Virus record (IMG/VR): IMGVR_UViG_3300042878_001497
Location: 1 to 64,000 of that record
DNA from: a virus
Reading direction: 5' to 3' (one strand)
Length of the DNA stretch: 64,000 nt
A program made the translations under genes and the position numbers. Below, one piece after another: positions 29,164 to 64,000 of this stretch (the first letter of the stretch is position 1; the number at the start of each line of letters is the position of its first letter). Below the pieces are notes generated by a model, which did not search any database, was not told where the DNA came from, and was given only the letters and a program-made list of their open reading frames with translations.

Positions 29164-29180
29164 AACTTCTTTCGTATATT
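29153..29180 (+). promoter_or_regulatory. Host sigmaA-type promoter TTG-N19-TATATT for replication module
   Basis: Recurrent motif, directly upstream of the polA-like gene. Confidence 0.6.
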
Positions 29181-31904: not shown

Positions 31905-32993
31905 ATGGCTAAAAAAGGCATTTCTGAAGTCGCTCAAGCAGCGATCAAGAATAACTTCGACCTCGGGAAGTTTAAGAAGAACAAGGGACTAGCATCTGCT
32001 AGCGTTAAGTTCAAAGAGCAGAGATGGATTCCTCTATCTAAAGCTTTCCAGGACATCACTTCGATTCCTGGCATCCCTCAAGGTCACATCACGCTTTTGC
32101 GAGGTCATAGTGATACTGGAAAGACTACCGCTTTGCTAGAAGCTGCAGTAGCAGCCCAGAAGATGGGAGTACTTCCAGTATTCATTATCACGGAGATGAA
32201 GTGGAGCTGGGAGCATGCCCGGGAGATGGGTCTGCAGTTCCAAGAGGTTGTTGATAAGGACACCGGAGAGATCATTGACTTCGAAGGTTTCTTCCTTTAC
32301 GTAGACCGAGGCAACATCAATACTATCGAAGACGTATCAACGTTTATTCTCGATCTAATTGATGAGCAGAAGAAAGGAGAACTACCCCATAACCTTTTGT
32401 TCCTGTGGGATTCAATCGGTTCGGTACCATGTGAGCTATCAGTTCGTTCTAACAAGAACAACAACGAGTGGAATGCCGGCGCTATGAGCACCCAGTTCGG
32501 TAATAACGTCAACCAGAAAATCCTCCTATCTAGGAAGGAAGGTCAACCTTACACCAACACTCTAGTTGCTATCAACAAGGTTTGGACTATGAAACCCGGC
32601 ATGCCGATGGAACAGCCCAAGCTTCAGAACAAGGGCGGTATGGCGATGTGGTATGATGCTACTTTGGTAATCACTTTTGGTAACATCACCAACTCCGGCA
32701 CCAGCAAGATCAAGGCTATCAAAGGAGGTAAGCAGGTAGAATTTGCCAAGCGTACTAAGATCCAGGTAGATAAGAACCACATCAACGGTATCACTACCCG
32801 AGGTGCGATCGTCATGACTACTCACGGCTTCTTAGAAGACGAAAAAAAAGCAATCGATAATTATAAAAAGGAACATTCCGACTACTGGCTCACGACCCTC
32901 GGTTCAACCGATTTTGTGCTGGTAGAGGAAGGCAGTATGGAAGAGGACATCCGAGACATCGGAATAGAGTTCGGCCTTAACATGGAAGTGTAA
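31905..32993 (+). CDS. uvsX: RecA/UvsX-like recombinase
   Basis: Walker A GHSDTGKT; LFLWDSIGS; INKVW...KGG. Confidence 0.8.
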   Translation: MAKKGISEVAQAAIKNNFDLGKFKKNKGLASASVKFKEQRWIPLSKAFQDITSIPGIPQGHITLLRGHSDTGKTTALLEAAVAAQKMGVLPVFIITEMKWSWEHAREMGLQFQEVVDKDTGEIIDFEGFFLYVDRGNINTIEDVSTFILDLIDEQKKGELPHNLLFLWDSIGSVPCELSVRSNKNNNEWNAGAMSTQFGNNVNQKILLSRKEGQPYTNTLVAINKVWTMKPGMPMEQPKLQNKGGMAMWYDATLVITFGNITNSGTSKIKAIKGGKQVEFAKRTKIQVDKNHINGITTRGAIVMTTHGFLEDEKKAIDNYKKEHSDYWLTTLGSTDFVLVEEGSMEEDIRDIGIEFGLNMEV

Positions 32994-45030: not shown

Positions 45031-45906
45031 ATGGCAAAACACGTTGTAGTTTCGTTATCTGGAGGAATGGATTCCTCAACACTCTTGCTTAGAGCATTGA
45101 GTGAATTTGATACTGTAACAGCAGTATCGTTTGACTACGGTCAAAAACACCGAGTAGAGCTTGAACGAGCTCAAGACCTGGTTAACTATTTGAATCTTAG
45201 AGCTGATGAGACTAAGTATAAAAGCGATGTAGCTGAAGTTATTATGCATCACTTTCCTAAAGTTAACTACCAGTTAATTAAACTTGACGGCTTGAGTCAA
45301 CTACTAAACTCGGCTCTAGTAACTGGAGGTGATGAAGTACCGGAAGGTCACTATGCTGCCGAGAACATGAAAGCTACCGTAGTACCTAACCGAAATAAAA
45401 TCTTCAGTTCAATCACCCAGGCAATCGCTTTATCTATCGCAAATGAAACAAAAGAAGAATGCTCCATCGCTCTCGGTATCCATGCCGGAGACCATGACAT
45501 CTACCCAGACTGCCGACAGGAGTTCCGCGACGCCGACGATCATGCGTTTCGTATGGGTAACTGGGATAACGATCGGGTATCTTATTGGACTCCTTACCTG
45601 GAAGGTAATAAGTTTACTATCTTAGAAGATGGAGAGAAGTTATGTGAGGAACTAGGACTTGAATTTGATGAAGTCTATAAGCGCACTAATACCTCTTATA
45701 AACCCATTAAGTGGTACAGTCGCAAAGAAACCAATGCATACGAATGGTACTCAGACTACAAATCAGCTTCTTCAGTAGAACGAGTTGAAGCATTTATCAA
45801 GCTAGGGCGTCCTGATCCTGCACCTTATGCTGACGAGACTGGCCCTGTGACCTGGGAGCACGTTGTGACCGAAGTATCTAAAGTACTTGAATCGCATACA
45901 AAGTAA
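45031..45906 (+). CDS. queC: 7-cyano-7-deazaguanine synthase
   Basis: SGGMDS; FDYGQKH; VPNRN; YPDCR. Confidence 0.92.
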   Translation: MAKHVVVSLSGGMDSSTLLLRALSEFDTVTAVSFDYGQKHRVELERAQDLVNYLNLRADETKYKSDVAEVIMHHFPKVNYQLIKLDGLSQLLNSALVTGGDEVPEGHYAAENMKATVVPNRNKIFSSITQAIALSIANETKEECSIALGIHAGDHDIYPDCRQEFRDADDHAFRMGNWDNDRVSYWTPYLEGNKFTILEDGEKLCEELGLEFDEVYKRTNTSYKPIKWYSRKETNAYEWYSDYKSASSVERVEAFIKLGRPDPAPYADETGPVTWEHVVTEVSKVLESHTK

Positions 45907-51619: not shown

Positions 51620-51652
51620 AGGTGTCGTAGCACCACCTTAAAAAAACACTAA
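51620..51652 (+). ncRNA. preQ1 class I riboswitch-like aptamer (queD-queE operon)
   Basis: P1 AGGUG/CACCU; loop UCGUAGCAC; tail UAAAAAAACACUAA; ATG at 51654. Confidence 0.72.
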
Positions 51653-51653
51653 T

Positions 51654-51929
51654 ATGGCAAAAAAGCAGTTATTGACTGAACCGGTCCTTCCTAAGGACAG
51701 TATTATCAATCCCGAACTCTACCACAAGGTAAAAGGGACCAATTCTAAGATTGATACCAAGTTTAAGCACTTGGAGAAGATGCCTGATCAAAAATGGCAT
51801 CAAATTATTTCTTTTATTAAATCTGGCGTTCGAATTGTAGGCTACGGAATCATTCCTTTTGATTTGGTAGCAGCTGCAATCGTTCTTATATTTAGTGAAG
51901 TAATCGGTATTATTGAAGAATTAGTATGA
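51654..51929 (+). CDS. Small membrane protein, first gene of queD-queE operon
   Basis: C-terminal hydrophobic segment; ATGA overlap with queD. Confidence 0.65.
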   Translation: MAKKQLLTEPVLPKDSIINPELYHKVKGTNSKIDTKFKHLEKMPDQKWHQIISFIKSGVRIVGYGIIPFDLVAAAIVLIFSEVIGIIEELV

Positions 51930-53529: not shown

Positions 53530-53721
53530 ATGACATTAGGACAGGTTATAACAGTAGGAGATGATTGGTACCAGGTTATTAGAACAGTTAGAGAAGGTCG
53601 TGAATGGGATGTTGAACTTCTTAAACAGTACTGGTTTTGTTCGCATACCTTCCGTAAGGATGGTTTACTCTATTTTTGCCGAGCGATTGAAAAAGTTGAA
53701 TTTGAAGAAATAACAGAGTGA
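53530..53721 (+). CDS. Small hypothetical protein
   Basis: Packed ORF. Confidence 0.55.
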   Translation: MTLGQVITVGDDWYQVIRTVREGREWDVELLKQYWFCSHTFRKDGLLYFCRAIEKVEFEEITE

Positions 53722-54392
53722 TTGCAATACTAGGAGGAACAGGGTTGCTGGGAAAAGAGTTACAAAAGCTAGATTCTTCCTTAGTCTGTACGGGCCGGGA
53801 AATTGATATTACTAACTTTAAAGAAGTCTTCTACTACCTTAATAAAGTAAACCCGGATACTGTAGTCAACGCAGCTGCAATAACAAATTCCATAGAGGTT
53901 TCTGAGAATCCTATTCCTGCTATAGACGTTAATATTATAGGTGCTGCTAATATAGCTAAGTACTGTCAGCAATATGGTAAGAGATTGGTATATATTAGCA
54001 CAGACTACGTCTATCCCGGAACTGGTAACCATGTAGAGGATGATGCTCTATACCCAAATAACGAATATGCGTGGACTAAATTAGGGGGAGAATGTTCTTC
54101 TAGATTGGTGAAAGATCATTGTATAATTCGTACTAGTTTTGGAAGTAGAAAATTTCCTTATCCTGCTGCATATATAAATTTATTTACAAGTAAAGAATAC
54201 GTAGGTGTGCTTGCTCCTCAAATCTTAAAAATTATACAGAGTAAACTTAACGGAATTGTAAATGTAGGAGGTTACAGAAAAAGTTCATATATTTACGCAT
54301 CACAGTACAGCAAGGTTGACAAAATTCAATTAGAACATAGTAAAGATTTTAGCCTAAACACAGCAAAATATAATGAGAATTTCCCAGAGTGA
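53718..54392 (+). CDS. RmlD-like NDP-sugar reductase
   Basis: GGTGLLG; NAAA; ISTDYVY; YAWTKLGGE; IIRTS. Confidence 0.85.
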   Translation: MIAILGGTGLLGKELQKLDSSLVCTGREIDITNFKEVFYYLNKVNPDTVVNAAAITNSIEVSENPIPAIDVNIIGAANIAKYCQQYGKRLVYISTDYVYPGTGNHVEDDALYPNNEYAWTKLGGECSSRLVKDHCIIRTSFGSRKFPYPAAYINLFTSKEYVGVLAPQILKIIQSKLNGIVNVGGYRKSSYIYASQYSKVDKIQLEHSKDFSLNTAKYNENFPE

Positions 54393-55605
54393 TTCATGCC
54401 CGATAACCGGAACTTCAGAAAGACTTAAGTACTTTTCTCTAGGCGAAATGCCGCTTGTTAATAATCTTGCCGATACTTTAGAAGAATCTTTAACCTGCAA
54501 AAAGATTCCTTTAGAACTAAACTATTTTGCAGAATCAAAACTTACTGCTTTAACTACTTTTGTAGACAGTCAGTCTTTGTTTAGTAACTACCTTTACAAG
54601 TCTGGAGTTAACACTCCCTACATTTCTCATAGTAGAAAAATGTTCAAAGATGTACGGAAGCTCTTACAACTTAAAGACCAGGACCTTATTGTAGACATTG
54701 GAGGTAATGATGGAACACTTCTTAAAACTTTTCGAGAAACTTCTAAAACATCCCTACAGTACCTAAATATTGATGGTTCTGAAAACATCACACAGTACTC
54801 TAAAGAACAGGGAATTAATACACTCTGCGAGTTTTTTAATGAAGATACCCCTACCCGAGTTAAAACTTTAGCCAAAGTTGTTGTATCCACAAATGTTTTT
54901 CAACATTTACAGGATACTAATTCTTTTGTTAGAGGGGTAAAAAAACTTCTACAATCAGACGGTGTATGGGTACTAGAATTTCCGTACTGGCTTCATGATA
55001 TGAAGACCAAGCAATTTGACCAGGTGTACCATGAGCATATGTACTACTACACAGTTACTCCGCTAGTAGCAATGATGCAAAAACACGAGTTGGAAGTTTT
55101 ACGAGTAGTTCCTCAAAAAATACATGGAGGTACTTTGCGTCTAATCATAGGGCATTTAGGAGGTAATCAACACCTAAAAGATAGTAGTGTAGAAGTTTAC
55201 CTAAAGAGAGAATCTAAACTTACACCCAAGTTCTACCAGCAGTGGGGAGCAAAAATTAAACAGCATTTGGTATCCTGTGAGAGTGAACTAAAGTACCTAA
55301 AAGGTAAAGGTAAGACCCTGGTAGGATTTGCTGCAAGTGCTAAGGGATGTGTCTTTCTAAACAGTGCCGGGATAGATTGTAAAGTACTTGATTTCATTAT
55401 CGATGATACTGATATAAAACAAGGCAAATTTATGCCGGGTACCGGACTAGAAATTAAAGGGAGAGGAGATGTAGATTTTGAACAAATTGATTACATTCTT
55501 ATACTCTCTCATAATTTTAGTGATCATATCATAAAAAGTCTTAAAGACGAAGGATATGAAGGTAAGTTTGTTGTGTGTTTACCTTCTTATAAAGTACTAT
55601 CATGA
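54373..55605 (+). CDS. NDP-hexose C-methyltransferase-like protein
   Basis: LGEMPLVN; DIGGNDGTLL; FDQVYHEH; IHGGTLR; AASAKG; KQGKFMPG. Confidence 0.85.
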   Translation: MRISQSDSCPITGTSERLKYFSLGEMPLVNNLADTLEESLTCKKIPLELNYFAESKLTALTTFVDSQSLFSNYLYKSGVNTPYISHSRKMFKDVRKLLQLKDQDLIVDIGGNDGTLLKTFRETSKTSLQYLNIDGSENITQYSKEQGINTLCEFFNEDTPTRVKTLAKVVVSTNVFQHLQDTNSFVRGVKKLLQSDGVWVLEFPYWLHDMKTKQFDQVYHEHMYYYTVTPLVAMMQKHELEVLRVVPQKIHGGTLRLIIGHLGGNQHLKDSSVEVYLKRESKLTPKFYQQWGAKIKQHLVSCESELKYLKGKGKTLVGFAASAKGCVFLNSAGIDCKVLDFIIDDTDIKQGKFMPGTGLEIKGRGDVDFEQIDYILILSHNFSDHIIKSLKDEGYEGKFVVCLPSYKVLS

Positions 55606-56378
55606 ATTCAATCCCAGTAATAGGAACAGCAATTGTAAACACGCCCTACTGGCTATACCGGCTGATTGCTAGTGTAGACTACCCGGTGGATAACTTTGTT
55701 ATCTTTAATAACAACGGTCGAGGAGAAATCACAGAAGAGCTTGACAATCTAGCTAAACTCTCTCATAAGTTTATTAAGAAAATTACAGTATGCCACTTAC
55801 CTGCTAATCTAGGTGTGCCTGGAGCATTTAACCTTATTATAAAAAGTTATATAAATTCTCCTAGCTGGTTGATAGTAAACTACGATGTAGCTTTTGGACC
55901 AGGCTTCTTAAAAGAGATGGCAGAGAAAGCTTCTGACCCGGAAGTAGGAATGGTACATGGTAAAGCAGGTGATTTTGATTTACCGAGCTGGGATGTATTC
56001 CTAATTAAAGACTGGGTAGTACAGCAGTACGGACTCTTTGACGAAAACTTAACCCCAGCTTACTGCGAAGATGCAGATTATTTTATGAGATTTGTGCATA
56101 GGCCTATAAAAGTAGTAAAGCAGCTAGACAGTATTTATTACCACGGCCCTGGTGTAGATTACTACGAACACGGAAGTCAAACCAAAAAAGGAGAACCTGC
56201 ACTAGCAGCAAAATTAGATCAGGTTAACGAAATAAATTTTGAATATATGTTTAAAAAGTGGGGTGAAGGTTGGAGATGGGTAAACCCACTACCTACACCT
56301 TTTGATATAGAAGGAACTCCTATCTCAACAACTACTTTTGATTTAGAATTTGTACGCAAAAAACATTTAGGCTTTTAA
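55602..56378 (+). CDS. GT2-like glycosyltransferase
   Basis: NLGVPGAFN; NYDV; GLFDENLTPAYCEDADY. Confidence 0.75.
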   Translation: MNSIPVIGTAIVNTPYWLYRLIASVDYPVDNFVIFNNNGRGEITEELDNLAKLSHKFIKKITVCHLPANLGVPGAFNLIIKSYINSPSWLIVNYDVAFGPGFLKEMAEKASDPEVGMVHGKAGDFDLPSWDVFLIKDWVVQQYGLFDENLTPAYCEDADYFMRFVHRPIKVVKQLDSIYYHGPGVDYYEHGSQTKKGEPALAAKLDQVNEINFEYMFKKWGEGWRWVNPLPTPFDIEGTPISTTTFDLEFVRKKHLGF

Positions 56379-59905: not shown

Positions 59906-60303
59906 TCAACACCCACCCGATCAAGAAATCAGACCTAGGCTTCCACGGAAATCTCTTCGGTGGAAAGCTTATGGCCTGGATCGATGCGGCAGCAGCCTCT
60001 TATGCAATGGAGGTGTGTCACAATCGCAGAATGGTTACCGTCTGCATTGATAAGTGTGTGTTTAAGAAGCCTGCAAAGGAAGGGTCTCTGCTAAAGATAT
60101 ACGGGGATACCCTACATATCGGCACTACTAGCGTAACGCTTTACCTGGAAGGAAGAAGCTTTAACGTCTACACCCACGGTGAGGATGTAGTGCTGAGTAC
60201 CAACATTACCTTTGTCCGCATTGACGAAGAAGGAAGTGCTATTCCAATTTCAGATACAGTAAGAGAAAATTTAAAAAAGTATTTAGATGCAAAGTCTATT
60301 TGA
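59896..60303 (+). CDS. HotDog-fold acyl-CoA thioesterase
   Basis: HGNLFGGKLMAWID; MVTV; FKKP; TFVRID. Confidence 0.85.
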   Translation: MQLINTHPIKKSDLGFHGNLFGGKLMAWIDAAAASYAMEVCHNRRMVTVCIDKCVFKKPAKEGSLLKIYGDTLHIGTTSVTLYLEGRSFNVYTHGEDVVLSTNITFVRIDEEGSAIPISDTVRENLKKYLDAKSI

Positions 60304-60799
60304 TATTAAAGAGATCGAAATCCAGACTAAAATCCTTGCCAAGAAGATTTCAGCTGAACACCAAGGAGACAAAACTCCCGTTGTAATGGTAGGACTGTTG
60401 AACGGAGCATTTATGTTCTATGCAGACCTGGTACGCAATATGGGCATTGATGTGGAATGTGACTTCATGAGAGTTAAAAGCTACACAGCCCAGTTCAAGC
60501 AAGGAGATATTAAGATTATTAAAGATCTCGAGACTCCTATCAGAGGAAAGCACGTGTACCTGGTAGACGATATCTACGATACCGGCTCTACTATGAAAGC
60601 ATTAATTGAGTACCTAGAGGTAAAAAAGCCCGCCTCTATCTCAATTGTAACTCTACTCCGTAGAGAAACCTCTCCAATCCCGGATCAAGCCTTCTACAAG
60701 TACCATGCATTCACCATCAAGGATGAATGGGTAGTAGGATTTGGAATGGATGACGAAAAAGGTTATTCAAGAAATCTCAATGGAGTATTTGCTCTGTAA
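60287..60799 (+). CDS. hpt: Hypoxanthine-guanine phosphoribosyltransferase
   Basis: LLNGAFMFYADL; VDDIYDTGST; WVVGFGMD. Confidence 0.9.
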   Translation: MQSLFDIKEIEIQTKILAKKISAEHQGDKTPVVMVGLLNGAFMFYADLVRNMGIDVECDFMRVKSYTAQFKQGDIKIIKDLETPIRGKHVYLVDDIYDTGSTMKALIEYLEVKKPASISIVTLLRRETSPIPDQAFYKYHAFTIKDEWVVGFGMDDEKGYSRNLNGVFAL

Positions 60800-60817
60800 G
60801 AGAAGTTTTCGTATATT
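60789..60817 (+). promoter_or_regulatory. Host sigmaA-type promoter TTG-N20-TATATT upstream of riboswitch candidate 2
   Basis: Recurrent motif. Confidence 0.65.
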
Positions 60818-60822
60818 AAACA

Positions 60823-60856
60823 AAGGTGTTCGAAGCACCACCTTAAAAAAACAATT
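60823..60856 (+). ncRNA. preQ1 class I riboswitch-like aptamer (folE operon)
   Basis: P1 AAGGUG/CACCUU; loop UUCGAAGCAC; tail AAAAAAACAAUU; ATG at 60859. Confidence 0.72.
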
Positions 60857-60858
60857 AT

Positions 60859-61569
60859 ATGGCAGATAAAAAACGTTATGATGTAGAGTTAGCTCAAGCC
60901 GGCTTTGCCAACGGTATTTCCTCTCAACTGGCAGAGAAATTTAACATGCATAAGATGAACGATATCTCTCTTACCGAACAAGAGAAATACGTTATTATTG
61001 AAAGAGCAGCTAAAGCATTCGGTGAGTTTCTCGATGCATTAGGAGTTGATTGGAAGAACGATCCTAACTCTTCAGATACTCCACGTCGTGTAGCAAAAGC
61101 TTATGTAAACGATTTATGGTACGGCCGATTCAATCCTATGCCTGCTATCACAGCCTTCCCTTCAGATGGTTACGACGGCATTGTATTTGAAGGAAATATT
61201 CCTTTGACTTCGATGTGTTCACATCACCATCAGACCATTACCGGTCGAGTTCATATCGGCTACATCCCCTCTAAGGACGGAAAGGTAATCGGGCTTTCTA
61301 AACTGAATCGTATTGTAGAGCATTTCGGCCGTCGAGGAGCTATTCAGGAGCAGCTTACTGTTGCTATCCATAACGCAGTTGATACTGTGTGTGAAGGTAA
61401 CCTTGGAGTAGCTGTAATGATTGAGGCAGGTCATAACTGTGTATCATGCCGAGGCACCAAGCACGCCGGTGCATCAATGAAAACATCAAAGCTTTCAGGC
61501 AGCTTCCTTGAAGAAGATTCAGCCCGTGCAGAGTTTTATGAATTTGTAAAAGGATACGCATGCAAGTAA
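60859..61569 (+). CDS. folE: GTP cyclohydrolase I
   Basis: TPRRVAK; SMCSHH; GLSKLNR; IQEQLT; HNCVSCRG. Confidence 0.95.
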   Translation: MADKKRYDVELAQAGFANGISSQLAEKFNMHKMNDISLTEQEKYVIIERAAKAFGEFLDALGVDWKNDPNSSDTPRRVAKAYVNDLWYGRFNPMPAITAFPSDGYDGIVFEGNIPLTSMCSHHHQTITGRVHIGYIPSKDGKVIGLSKLNRIVEHFGRRGAIQEQLTVAIHNAVDTVCEGNLGVAVMIEAGHNCVSCRGTKHAGASMKTSKLSGSFLEEDSARAEFYEFVKGYACK

Positions 61570-62054
61570 AATTTGTTGACGAAGTAGAACTATTTAATTC
61601 TACCTTCGGTAAGCCGAATAACTACACCCCTATCATTCCTAATGATAAGAAGCTTACAGACTTTGTTGTTAACTTTATTAAAGAAGAAACCGATGAACTC
61701 GCCGAAGCAATCGAAAATAAAGACATCGTGGAAGTGTTGGATGCTATTTGTGATCTCCTGTATGTTGCCGTGGGCAATGCTACTATGGTCTTTGGCCTCA
61801 AAGATAAGTTAGAGGCAGCTTACGCTGAGGTACAGGCATCGAATATGTCTAAGAGCTGTGAGACCTACGATGAAGCAATGGAAACTATCGATGCTCATTA
61901 TAAAGACCATGGTACTTGTTACACTCGCCAGGTGGGAGATCGATGGGTTGTATACCGTGAATCGGACGATAAGGTAATGAAGTCAATCAATTACTTTGCT
62001 CCTAACCTAGAGCAATTTTTTACCGAAGAAGAAATTAAAAACTCCAAGCAATGA
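61560..62054 (+). CDS. MazG/PRA-PH-like NTP pyrophosphohydrolase
   Basis: EETDEL...EVLDAICDLLYV; EVQASNMSK; KVMKS. Confidence 0.8.
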   Translation: MQVKFVDEVELFNSTFGKPNNYTPIIPNDKKLTDFVVNFIKEETDELAEAIENKDIVEVLDAICDLLYVAVGNATMVFGLKDKLEAAYAEVQASNMSKSCETYDEAMETIDAHYKDHGTCYTRQVGDRWVVYRESDDKVMKSINYFAPNLEQFFTEEEIKNSKQ

Positions 62055-63062: not shown

Positions 63063-63567
63063 TCAGACAGGTTCTGAGATCGTTCAGATCTCGGAAGCTC
63101 TAGGGCGGTGGCCGGATATGATTATTAGTAATCGCCGACCGACTGATGCTAGAATTATTAGTCCTGCTCTTCCTAAAGATCGTCTGTACTTTACCTCCAA
63201 TAAGCCAGAAGCTTACGAATACTTACATTATCTCCGTCAGGCAAAAGATCCGATTGTAACTCTACACGGATGGCTTAGAGTACTTCCTGAAGAGGTTTGT
63301 GACAGTTACGAAGTTTACAACGGTCATCCAGGTTTGATTACCCGCTACCCTGAACTGAAGGGTAAAGATCCTCAGATGCGAGCTTTTGAAGGAGATTATA
63401 ATACTGGTGGTTGCGTGATTCATAAAGTAACTCCCGGAGTAGACGAAGGAGAGATTCTAATGGAAAAAGAAATTAGCATTAGACTGTTGGATCTTGACGG
63501 ACTATTCCGTACATTACATAAGACTTCAGTCAATATGTGGATTGAATTCCTTAAAGAACGTCTATGA
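63031..63567 (+). CDS. PurN-like formyltransferase (candidate preQ1 formyltransferase)
   Basis: FFSQTGS; LHGWLRVL; NGHPG; GCVIHKVTPGVDEGEI. Confidence 0.8.
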   Translation: METRPWVTFFSQTGSEIVQISEALGRWPDMIISNRRPTDARIISPALPKDRLYFTSNKPEAYEYLHYLRQAKDPIVTLHGWLRVLPEEVCDSYEVYNGHPGLITRYPELKGKDPQMRAFEGDYNTGGCVIHKVTPGVDEGEILMEKEISIRLLDLDGLFRTLHKTSVNMWIEFLKERL

Positions 63568-64000
63568 TTAAAAGAGTTGCATTAGTAGGAGCTAGTAGTA
63601 CCGGTAAGACGACTGTGTATGAGCTTCTTAAGAATCAGTTCCCGAAGTGGGAGTTTGTAAATGAGAGTACTCGTTCGGTAGCTCGTTACGGCTTTCCTAT
63701 CAATGAACTAGGTACTACAGAAACTCAGTTAGCTATCTCAAGCTTTCATTTAGAGGCATTGCTTAAACCTTATAATCTTATTCTGGATCGTTGTTACTTA
63801 GATCTAATAGTTTACTCTCGTCATATGCCGGGACTATCTCAATCAGGCTTAGATTTTATCGAAGCTACCTGGCAGCGAGTTCAAGACGAATATACTCATT
63901 ATATCTACTTTCCTATCGAATTCGATGCAGTCGATGACGGAGAAAGAAGTGTTGATGAAGATTGGAGAAAAATTATCGACGAAGAGTTCAAGTATCAATT
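63564..64000 (+). CDS. P-loop nucleotide-kinase-like protein (AAA_28/NadR-like), truncated by window end
   Basis: MIKRVALVGASSTGKTT; ESTR; ILDRCYLD; DDGER. Confidence 0.75.
   Translation, partial: MIKRVALVGASSTGKTTVYELLKNQFPKWEFVNESTRSVARYGFPINELGTTETQLAISSFHLEALLKPYNLILDRCYLDLIVYSRHMPGLSQSGLDFIEATWQRVQDEYTHYIYFPIEFDAVDDGERSVDEDWRKIIDEEFKYQ

Follow-up and report, generated by a model that had tools for sequence, protein, structure and literature searches.

Between a promoter-like box and the start codon of folE, in a 64,000-nucleotide (nt) stretch of viral DNA (IMG/VR record IMGVR_UViG_3300042878_001497), there is a short hairpin-forming sequence that makes up almost the whole leader of the gene, and the question is what this sequence does there. 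The stretch, which we call the window, corresponds to the first 64 kb of a virus record of 173,415 bp, from a Flavobacterium-type phage. An initial annotation of this DNA had proposed that the sequence is the second copy of an aptamer resembling those of the class I riboswitches for pre-queuosine 1 (preQ1), known as preQ1-I, the other copy being at 51620. The sequence is indeed present and is essentially the entire folE leader. From its conservation and its company of genes we consider that it is probably a preQ1-I-like element, either a compact and diverged member of the class or a close relative of its fold, which would work as a translational OFF switch sensing preQ1.

The sequence AAGGTG-TTCGAAGCAC-CACCTT-AAAAAAAC-AATTAT occupies positions 60823-60858 of the plus strand, where the parts of the leader and the sister copy all lie, and the ATG of folE is at 60859. 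This gene (60859..61569) had been annotated as folE, and its identity as a GTP cyclohydrolase I is confirmed by Pfam (PF01227, GTP_cyclohydroI, E 9e-44). The preceding phosphoribosyltransferase gene ends at 60799, leaving an intergenic region of 59 nt that holds a TTCGTATATTA box (60808-60818) and the element itself, whose 30 nt (60824-60853) fill the leader between the promoter-like box and the ATG. Read as RNA, the leader has the order AGGUG UUCGAAGCAC CACCU UAAAAAAA C AAUUAU AUG. AGGUG (60824..60828, with GGUG as its core) is the 5' strand of the first paired region (P1) and CACCU (60839..60843) is its 3' strand. The loop UUCGAAGCAC between them (60829..60838) maps to the first loop (L1, UU), the 5' strand of the second paired region (P2, CGAAG) and the second loop (L2, CAC) of preQ1-I aptamers, and its last base, the C at 60838, is the putative specificity base. 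The third loop (L3) is the tail UAAAAAAA (60844..60851), which is followed by CA (60852..60853); this C is the putative partner of a loop G, and the ATG comes 6 nt after it.

The sister copy is found at 51620..51648, before an open reading frame (ORF) that we call ORF91 (51654), queD (51926) and queE (52393), and it scored 52.8 bits with a covariance model built from the relatives described below. With up to 3 mismatches allowed, there are exactly two occurrences of the 20-mer AGCACCACCTTAAAAAAACA in the window, one starting at 51629 and the other at 60834, where chance would give 0.01; the shared sequence reported in the initial annotation amounts to these 20 exact bases. In the whole 173,415-bp record, a structural pattern and the covariance model (E up to 10) separately gave these two sites and no others, which bears out the claim that the motif is confined to two deazaguanine operons, and related phages are restricted in the same way. 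The difference between the loops, UCGUAG in the copy at 51620 and UUCGAAG in the folE copy, is also real. Since the first loop U of the folE copy is an insertion present in only 1 of the 52 sequences that we compared, it is a lineage-specific insertion and not a conserved feature of the class.

These 52 distinct versions of the element come from contigs of related phages, which were sampled as 80 viral contigs with relatives of FolE, 80 with relatives of QueD and a degenerate-pattern scan of IMG/VR. Every version is on the coding strand, and the distance from the tail C to the ATG ranges from 2 to 12 nt with a mode of 6. At 28 of the 80 FolE loci the element stands before folE. It is missing at 77 of the 80 QueD loci, contrary to what was expected for close relatives of QueD, and in most of the QueD loci without it ORF91 is fused into longer operons.

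Regarding the stem, the four core pairs of P1 are formed in 98-100% of the sequences (51-52 of 52), with one unpaired cell in all. Two of these pairs are invariant G-C, the third is A-U (29), G-C (13) or U-A (9), and the fourth is U-A (40) or A-U (12). In 500 column shuffles the covariation score of the real alignment was never attained, and a shift of the 3' strand by 1-3 columns brought it down from 0.37 to 0.19 or less. The family thus has a short covarying P1 closing a loop, of 9-10 nt as against 10-12 nt in Rfam PreQ1. The fifth, closing A-U pair, which both copies of the window possess, is not conserved, being kept in just 7 of the 52. The minimum free energy fold of single sequences gave another register, GGUGUU/AGCACC (z-scores -1.0 and 0.1), 3 nt away from this one. 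We rejected it because relatives with the stems GGAG/CUCC, AGUG/CACU and UGAG/CUCA cannot form it and because it shows no covariation: at a slide of -3 the positions are 66% paired and the score is 0.07, against 0.37.

The single-stranded parts are conserved as well. An A-tract of 4-7 is kept in all 52 sequences, it is followed by C in 51 of 51 distinct leaders, and the dinucleotide CA is found in 49 of the 51. The U, C, G, A, G, A and C of the loop are invariant or nearly so. With the covariance model from the relatives, true sites scored at least 27.8 bits, all but one of them at least 35, and the folE loci that were searched gave no other match at E up to 1. Among the matches listed for the degenerate pattern, the stem was paired in 73 of 128 in viral contigs versus 4 of 119 in genome contigs, those in genome contigs being for the most part matches by chance. 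The covariance model gave no match in 151 sampled Bacteroidota genomes, where a fraction of the candidates was scored, which makes this weak evidence; in general, shallow searches of bacterial genomes did not turn up the variant. A blastn search of the leader against cultured phages gave no match either, probably through low-complexity filtering.

What makes this hairpin look like a preQ1 aptamer is the identity of the conserved bases. In the preQ1-I structure of Thermoanaerobacter tengcongensis (Tte; PMC7641330), C15 pairs with preQ1, the pair G5-C16 is the floor of the pocket and the triple C7-G11-C30 its ceiling, G8.A31 and A10.A32 are non-canonical pairs of P2, A14 docks on G11, and C9 pairs with G33, a base of the Shine-Dalgarno sequence (SD). 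In our 52 sequences, the equivalents of U6, C7, G8, A10, G11, A14, C15, G5-C16, A29, C30 and A31 are invariant or nearly so. The specificity C, the U at the start of the loop and the A at the end of the A-tail (Tte C15, U6 and A29), which in the folE copy are represented by 60838, the loop and the last A of the tail, do not vary at all; the C and A at 60852..60853 would take the places of C30, the partner of G11, and of A31. The sole loop base that varies freely is the equivalent of Tte C9 (U in 42, A in 5, G in 4 and C in 1), that is, the position whose partner is lost where there is no SD. Among the Rfam families, PreQ1 (RF00522) was the best match of the folE copy, which aligned to that model from end to end with 21.8 bits and an E value of 0.021 (251-nt search, 4227 families). 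The covariation and the conserved pocket nucleotides argue for function over chance, as the initial annotation had maintained on the grounds of gene context.

Three types of preQ1-I are distinguished (PMC11625349). Type I, which binds two stacked ligands, is marked by UC ahead of the 3' strand of P1, by UU on top of the 5' strand and by an A-tail that a C interrupts; type II has AC; and type III has UU plus AC, a pyrimidine-rich loop and pairing to AAGG. In the phage family, the dinucleotide ahead of the 3' strand of P1 has its A in 51 of 52 sequences and its C in 52 of 52, and the A7 tract of the folE copy is uninterrupted. These are signatures of types II and III, whose RNAs bind one ligand each. 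Because of this AC and the uninterrupted A-tract, we take the family to be type II-like, and we expect one ligand per RNA. Like the type II aptamers of T. tengcongensis and Bacillus subtilis, the phage element takes the form of a stem-loop, about 30 nt long, whose 3' tail is rich in A and whose loop starts with UCG.AG. It lies directly upstream of genes for the biosynthesis of queuosine precursors, a position which suggests that translation is controlled, as in Tte. Unlike them, it has no SD to sequester, it is phage-encoded, and it is tied to a DNA modification pathway and not to tRNA queuosine.

The initial annotation had compared the GUUCG form of the folE copy with type I aptamers that bind two ligands, of which that of Carnobacterium antarcticum, with two stacked preQ1, is an example. 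The folE copy does have UU atop the 5' strand, but this is the only type I feature, found in this copy alone of the 52; AC and not UC stands before the 3' strand and no C interrupts the A-tail. Two ligands are therefore not expected and the comparison does not hold, and the accompanying suggestion of different thresholds for the two copies is speculation that found no support. With type III (Escherichia coli) the folE copy shares UU plus AC and a small size; however, aptamers of that type have a pyrimidine-rich loop, sequester an AAGG SD in Watson-Crick pairs and are nearly confined to Pseudomonadota (PMC11625349), and none of this applies here. One locus departs from the rest of the family: L027 (2950-2986) has UC in place of AC before the 3' strand of P1 and an SD-like CGGAG in the tail, which are partial type I-like features; it may come from a phage whose host uses SD, or be of a different subtype.

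The family also stands apart from other phage-encoded riboswitches, such as those discussed for marine phages. Like them, it would be a metabolite-sensing leader that a phage carries before an auxiliary metabolic gene, but in the open-access literature we found none connected with preQ1 or with the hypermodification of DNA. In Streptococcus phage Dp-1, a search of the queuosine operon with Rfam did not give any preQ1 match.

Regarding the expression platform, the promoter-like box TTTTCGTATATTA (60806..60818) ends 5 nt before the stem. Its core TTCGTATATTA is found in identical form three times on the plus strand of the window, at 29171, 44829 and 60808, and boxes of the type (T)TCGTATATT or GTTATATTA stand before the aptamers of related phages. 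This type of box is probably a promoter class of the phage and not the TAnnTTTG type of Bacteroidota. A scan for sigma-70 promoters did not call the TTTTCGTATATTA box, and a terminator scan found none after the element. As the -10-like box ends so close to the stem, the transcript probably starts within a few nt of P1. Similar boxes precede other genes in related phages as well.

The absence of a terminator and the AUG lying 6 nt from the pseudoknot C suggest control of translation initiation. On the plus strand of the window, SD-like 4-mers precede 7 of 58 ORFs, which is below the 22% of random windows, and A is enriched before the ORFs at -3 (0.59), -6 (0.47) and -10 to -13 (0.45-0.53). This is consistent with a phage that initiates without SD, as Bacteroidota hosts do, and among them the Flavobacteriia hosts of this phage. 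A Kozak-like A pattern is reported for Flavobacteria, and the enrichment in the phage matches it. The L3 tail of the folE copy, at -15 to -8 from the ATG, overlaps the A-rich zone at -10 to -13 of the genes of the phage.

The genes that follow the element point to the pathway that it would serve. Right after about 108 locus matches, we found five groups of genes. FolE was the largest group (about 62 matches, with 25 distinct leaders), followed by ORF91-type proteins, a family of membrane proteins of 67-107 aa that precedes queD/queE (about 35). A signal-peptide protein of 197 aa that heads an ORF91-queD operon was found in 6 cases, and QueD or QueE came first after the aptamer in 2 cases each. 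One further match, on a GC-rich contig, is doubtful. The element is thus associated with 7-deazaguanine biosynthesis genes, and in the phage of the window this pathway is complete: QueC (45031-45906), QueD and QueE (Pfam PTPS and Radical_SAM), FolE, and QueF just past the window end. The operon headed by folE continues with a MazG-like pyrophosphatase, a small ORF, DpdA3, the formyltransferase DpdN, a kinase-like gene and queF. The dpdA-like and formyltransferase genes that had been predicted downstream are real; a reference for them is the phage vB_FspM_immuto_2-6A (immuto) of Flavobacterium, with whose DpdA (DpdA3) the 276-aa ORF is 71% identical, and with whose DpdN and FolE the window proteins are 58% and 79% identical, respectively.

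In immuto, the G of the DNA is fully replaced by formylated deoxy-preQ1 (fdPreQ1; PMC10516641). This cultured phage carries the element before folE, at positions ~32362-32398 of its record, with 51.1 bits. Its queD leader has a promoter-like box, ACGTATATTA, and no aptamer. Cellulophaga phage phiST has 2'-deoxy-7-deazaguanine (dDG) in its DNA and lacks a full pathway to pre-queuosine 0 (preQ0) (PMC10516641); there was no element in the 12.7 kb searched around its folE, queD and queE. Chryseobacterium phage MA9V-3 has none in its 12.6-kb folE/queE region. Among longer contigs, QueF was present in 12 of 12 with the element and in 2 of 11 folE contigs without it (Fisher p about 7e-5, a value that overstates independence because the contigs are related), and three essentially complete genomes without the element also lack QueF. 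The gene content supports a ligand that is a product at or beyond the QueF step.

Several observations weigh against reading the element as a preQ1-I switch. The 21.8 bits of the folE copy are below the Rfam gathering threshold of 39, which means that it is not formally a member of the family; at that threshold nothing in the whole window matches Rfam. The sister copy and nine related loci have no Rfam PreQ1 match at all, and at E up to 10 those nine loci gave spurious small nucleolar RNA matches only. The element is also smaller in its parts than the class I aptamers whose structures are solved, with 4 conserved pairs in P1, 3 nt in L2 and 6-9 nt (mostly 7) in L3, as compared with 5 pairs, 4-6 nt and 8-9 nt in type II. 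Aligned to Tte, P1 is one conserved pair shorter, L2 lacks one nt, with the gap at the bulged A13, and L3 is about 2-3 nt shorter, which is consistent with a shorter helix to span. P2 would consist of one invariant G-C pair plus presumed non-canonical pairs, and the second canonical pair of Tte P2 (C9-G33) has no counterpart in the family, as there is no SD. The loop G and the tail C, the possible partners in P2, are invariant, so that covariation cannot show in that pair; the pseudoknot has no covariation support because the P2 bases do not vary. When the loop was checked for canonical pairs with the bases just ahead of the AUG, no consistent Watson-Crick pattern emerged beyond this G-C pair. 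Loop position 12 and tail position 3 do co-vary (C with C, A with A), along the split between folE and ORF91 loci, which is probably phylogenetic. Finally, two relatives with both QueF and DpdN (L031/G166 and L053/G170) do not have the element; because of these two, the element is dispensable, lost or never gained in some lineages. In the first of them, a complete genome of 166 kb, the box is followed by the ATG after ~5 nt, so that the gene is near-leaderless.

Some of these points would be expected if the element were bound by a protein of the phage or the host, as a translational operator in the RNA or as an operator in the DNA, and so coordinated the deazaguanine genes without any direct sensing of a small molecule. 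A short hairpin with a highly conserved loop beside a promoter-like box and a start codon would suit such a site, as would the failure of the Rfam model to recognise most copies. The stem changes in concert on its two sides and its four core pairs show no G-U intermediates, as would likewise be expected of a symmetric DNA operator co-evolving with its protein. However, the conserved loop and tail are asymmetric and all copies have the same orientation to the gene. The conserved bases match the preQ1-I pocket one for one, and the one loop base that varies is the one that pairs with the SD. In the loci inspected no candidate regulator gene travels with the element, which instead tracks QueF, that is, the capacity to make preQ1. 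We therefore hold a protein site to be unlikely. It seems very improbable to us that the element is a hairpin stabilising the 5' terminus, or the generic leader of a single promoter class, with no regulatory sensing. The element does sit at the predicted 5' end of the transcript, and the same promoter-like box stands before other genes; but the other two TTCGTATATTA boxes of the window are not followed by it, its 52 distinct versions are limited to deazaguanine genes, and a simple stem leaves the conservation of the single-stranded loop and tail unexplained.

A riboswitch of the same fold could instead sense another ligand, namely preQ0 or the formylated base of DpdN, if this is made before insertion into DNA. 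Class I aptamers also accept preQ0. In our sample DpdN co-occurs exactly with QueF, and every aptamer-bearing contig tested has both, so that gene content cannot separate preQ1 from its formylated derivative and a formylated ligand is still compatible with it. The pocket could also differ, as L2 is one nt shorter than in Tte and the loop is 2 nt below the Rfam consensus. Against this, all the pocket bases of the preQ1-binding type II structure are kept, and a bulky N-formyl group would need room near the G11 equivalent, of which there is no sign. Moreover, the authors of PMC10516641 left open whether DpdN acts on preQ1 or on deoxy-preQ1 (dPreQ1) in DNA. We regard a different ligand as quite unlikely, while keeping in mind the possibility that the shortened pocket is retuned to a product of the pathway other than preQ1.

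With preQ1 as the ligand, the folE operon would be controlled as follows. Its 5' leader would be essentially an H-type pseudoknot aptamer of about 30 nt. Free preQ1 from the FolE-QueD-QueE-QueC-QueF pathway of the phage would pair with the C that closes the loop (60838), the A-tract would then dock in the minor groove of the 4-5-bp P1, and the tail C (60852) would pair with the loop G, closing the pseudoknot. Since the pseudoknot ends 6 nt before the AUG, and initiation without SD would proceed from an A-rich leader, the folded state would hide the landing zone of the ribosome. The ligand-stabilised pseudoknot would in this way remove the unstructured A-rich zone and block binding of the 30S subunit, turning folE translation OFF. 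The sister copy would do likewise for ORF91-queD-queE. The outcome would be product feedback at the point where GTP enters the pathway from which the phage obtains the base that stands in for G in its DNA.

Some of the genes around the two copies deserve a description of their own. The ORF91 family (51654-51929 in the window; also L059:652-909 and, on the minus strand, L215) is virus-only and lies directly before queD/queE in many phages. Its N-termini vary, and its C-terminus is strongly conserved, with PDxKxHQxxSFxKSGIRIxGY, a hydrophobic stretch and SExVGIxEELV. It has no Pfam or PHROG match, and its nearest ESM Atlas clusters are unnamed and 100% viral. The 197-aa protein, whose six loci include L127 (2140-2733), L138, L206 and L207, has a signal-peptide-like N-terminus and is followed by ORF91 and queD; under a preQ1-type switch, it could be a transporter or a salvage component. 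Three proteins are encoded on the flanks of folE, dpdA3, dpdN and queF: one HPRT-like phosphoribosyltransferase (60287-60799), one MazG/PRA-PH-like pyrophosphohydrolase and one thymidylate-kinase-like P-loop protein. The further coordinates of this set are 61560-62054, 63564-63998 and a stretch immediately past the window end, and the gene order is syntenic with immuto. The set hints that the modified base is also dealt with at the nucleotide level, next to the post-replicative DpdA model that has been published. The DpdN matches in G157, G158, G159, G162 and G163 have one in-frame TAG each, which may mark an overlap with the upstream ORF. Between queE and thyA (53718-56378) there are a fragment of an RmlD-like reductase (224 aa), a C-methyltransferase (Methyltransf_14) and a family 2 glycosyltransferase, which look like a sugar-modification module within a region of nucleotide metabolism.

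PMC10516641, the main paper on these phages, does not deal with how such pathways are regulated (neither "riboswitch" nor "regulat" occurs anywhere in its full text), and in the open-access literature we found no paper that links a riboswitch to DpdA or to 7-deazaguanine modification of phage DNA. We lean towards the view that this may be the first riboswitch family governing DNA hypermodification: a phage-borne, minimal preQ1-I variant of ~30 nt, free of SD, that would fold away the A-rich Kozak-like leader used by Bacteroidota ribosomes, and by which immuto-like phages would match the output of FolE, QueD and QueE to their demand for formyl-preQ1, the base that stands in for all G in their DNA. 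The family forms a coherent phage clade that the Rfam PreQ1 model misses. As immuto and its host, Flavobacterium sp. LMO8, are a cultured pair and the phage carries the element, the idea is directly testable. If it is true, the hypermodification pathway would have a control point in a metabolite sensor placed before its first committed enzyme, and the preQ1 riboswitch would have a new role, in the supply of a DNA base rather than in tRNA queuosine. It would also be a natural case of a class I aptamer working in the absence of an SD, and thereby of relevance to the control of translation by riboswitches in Bacteroidota.

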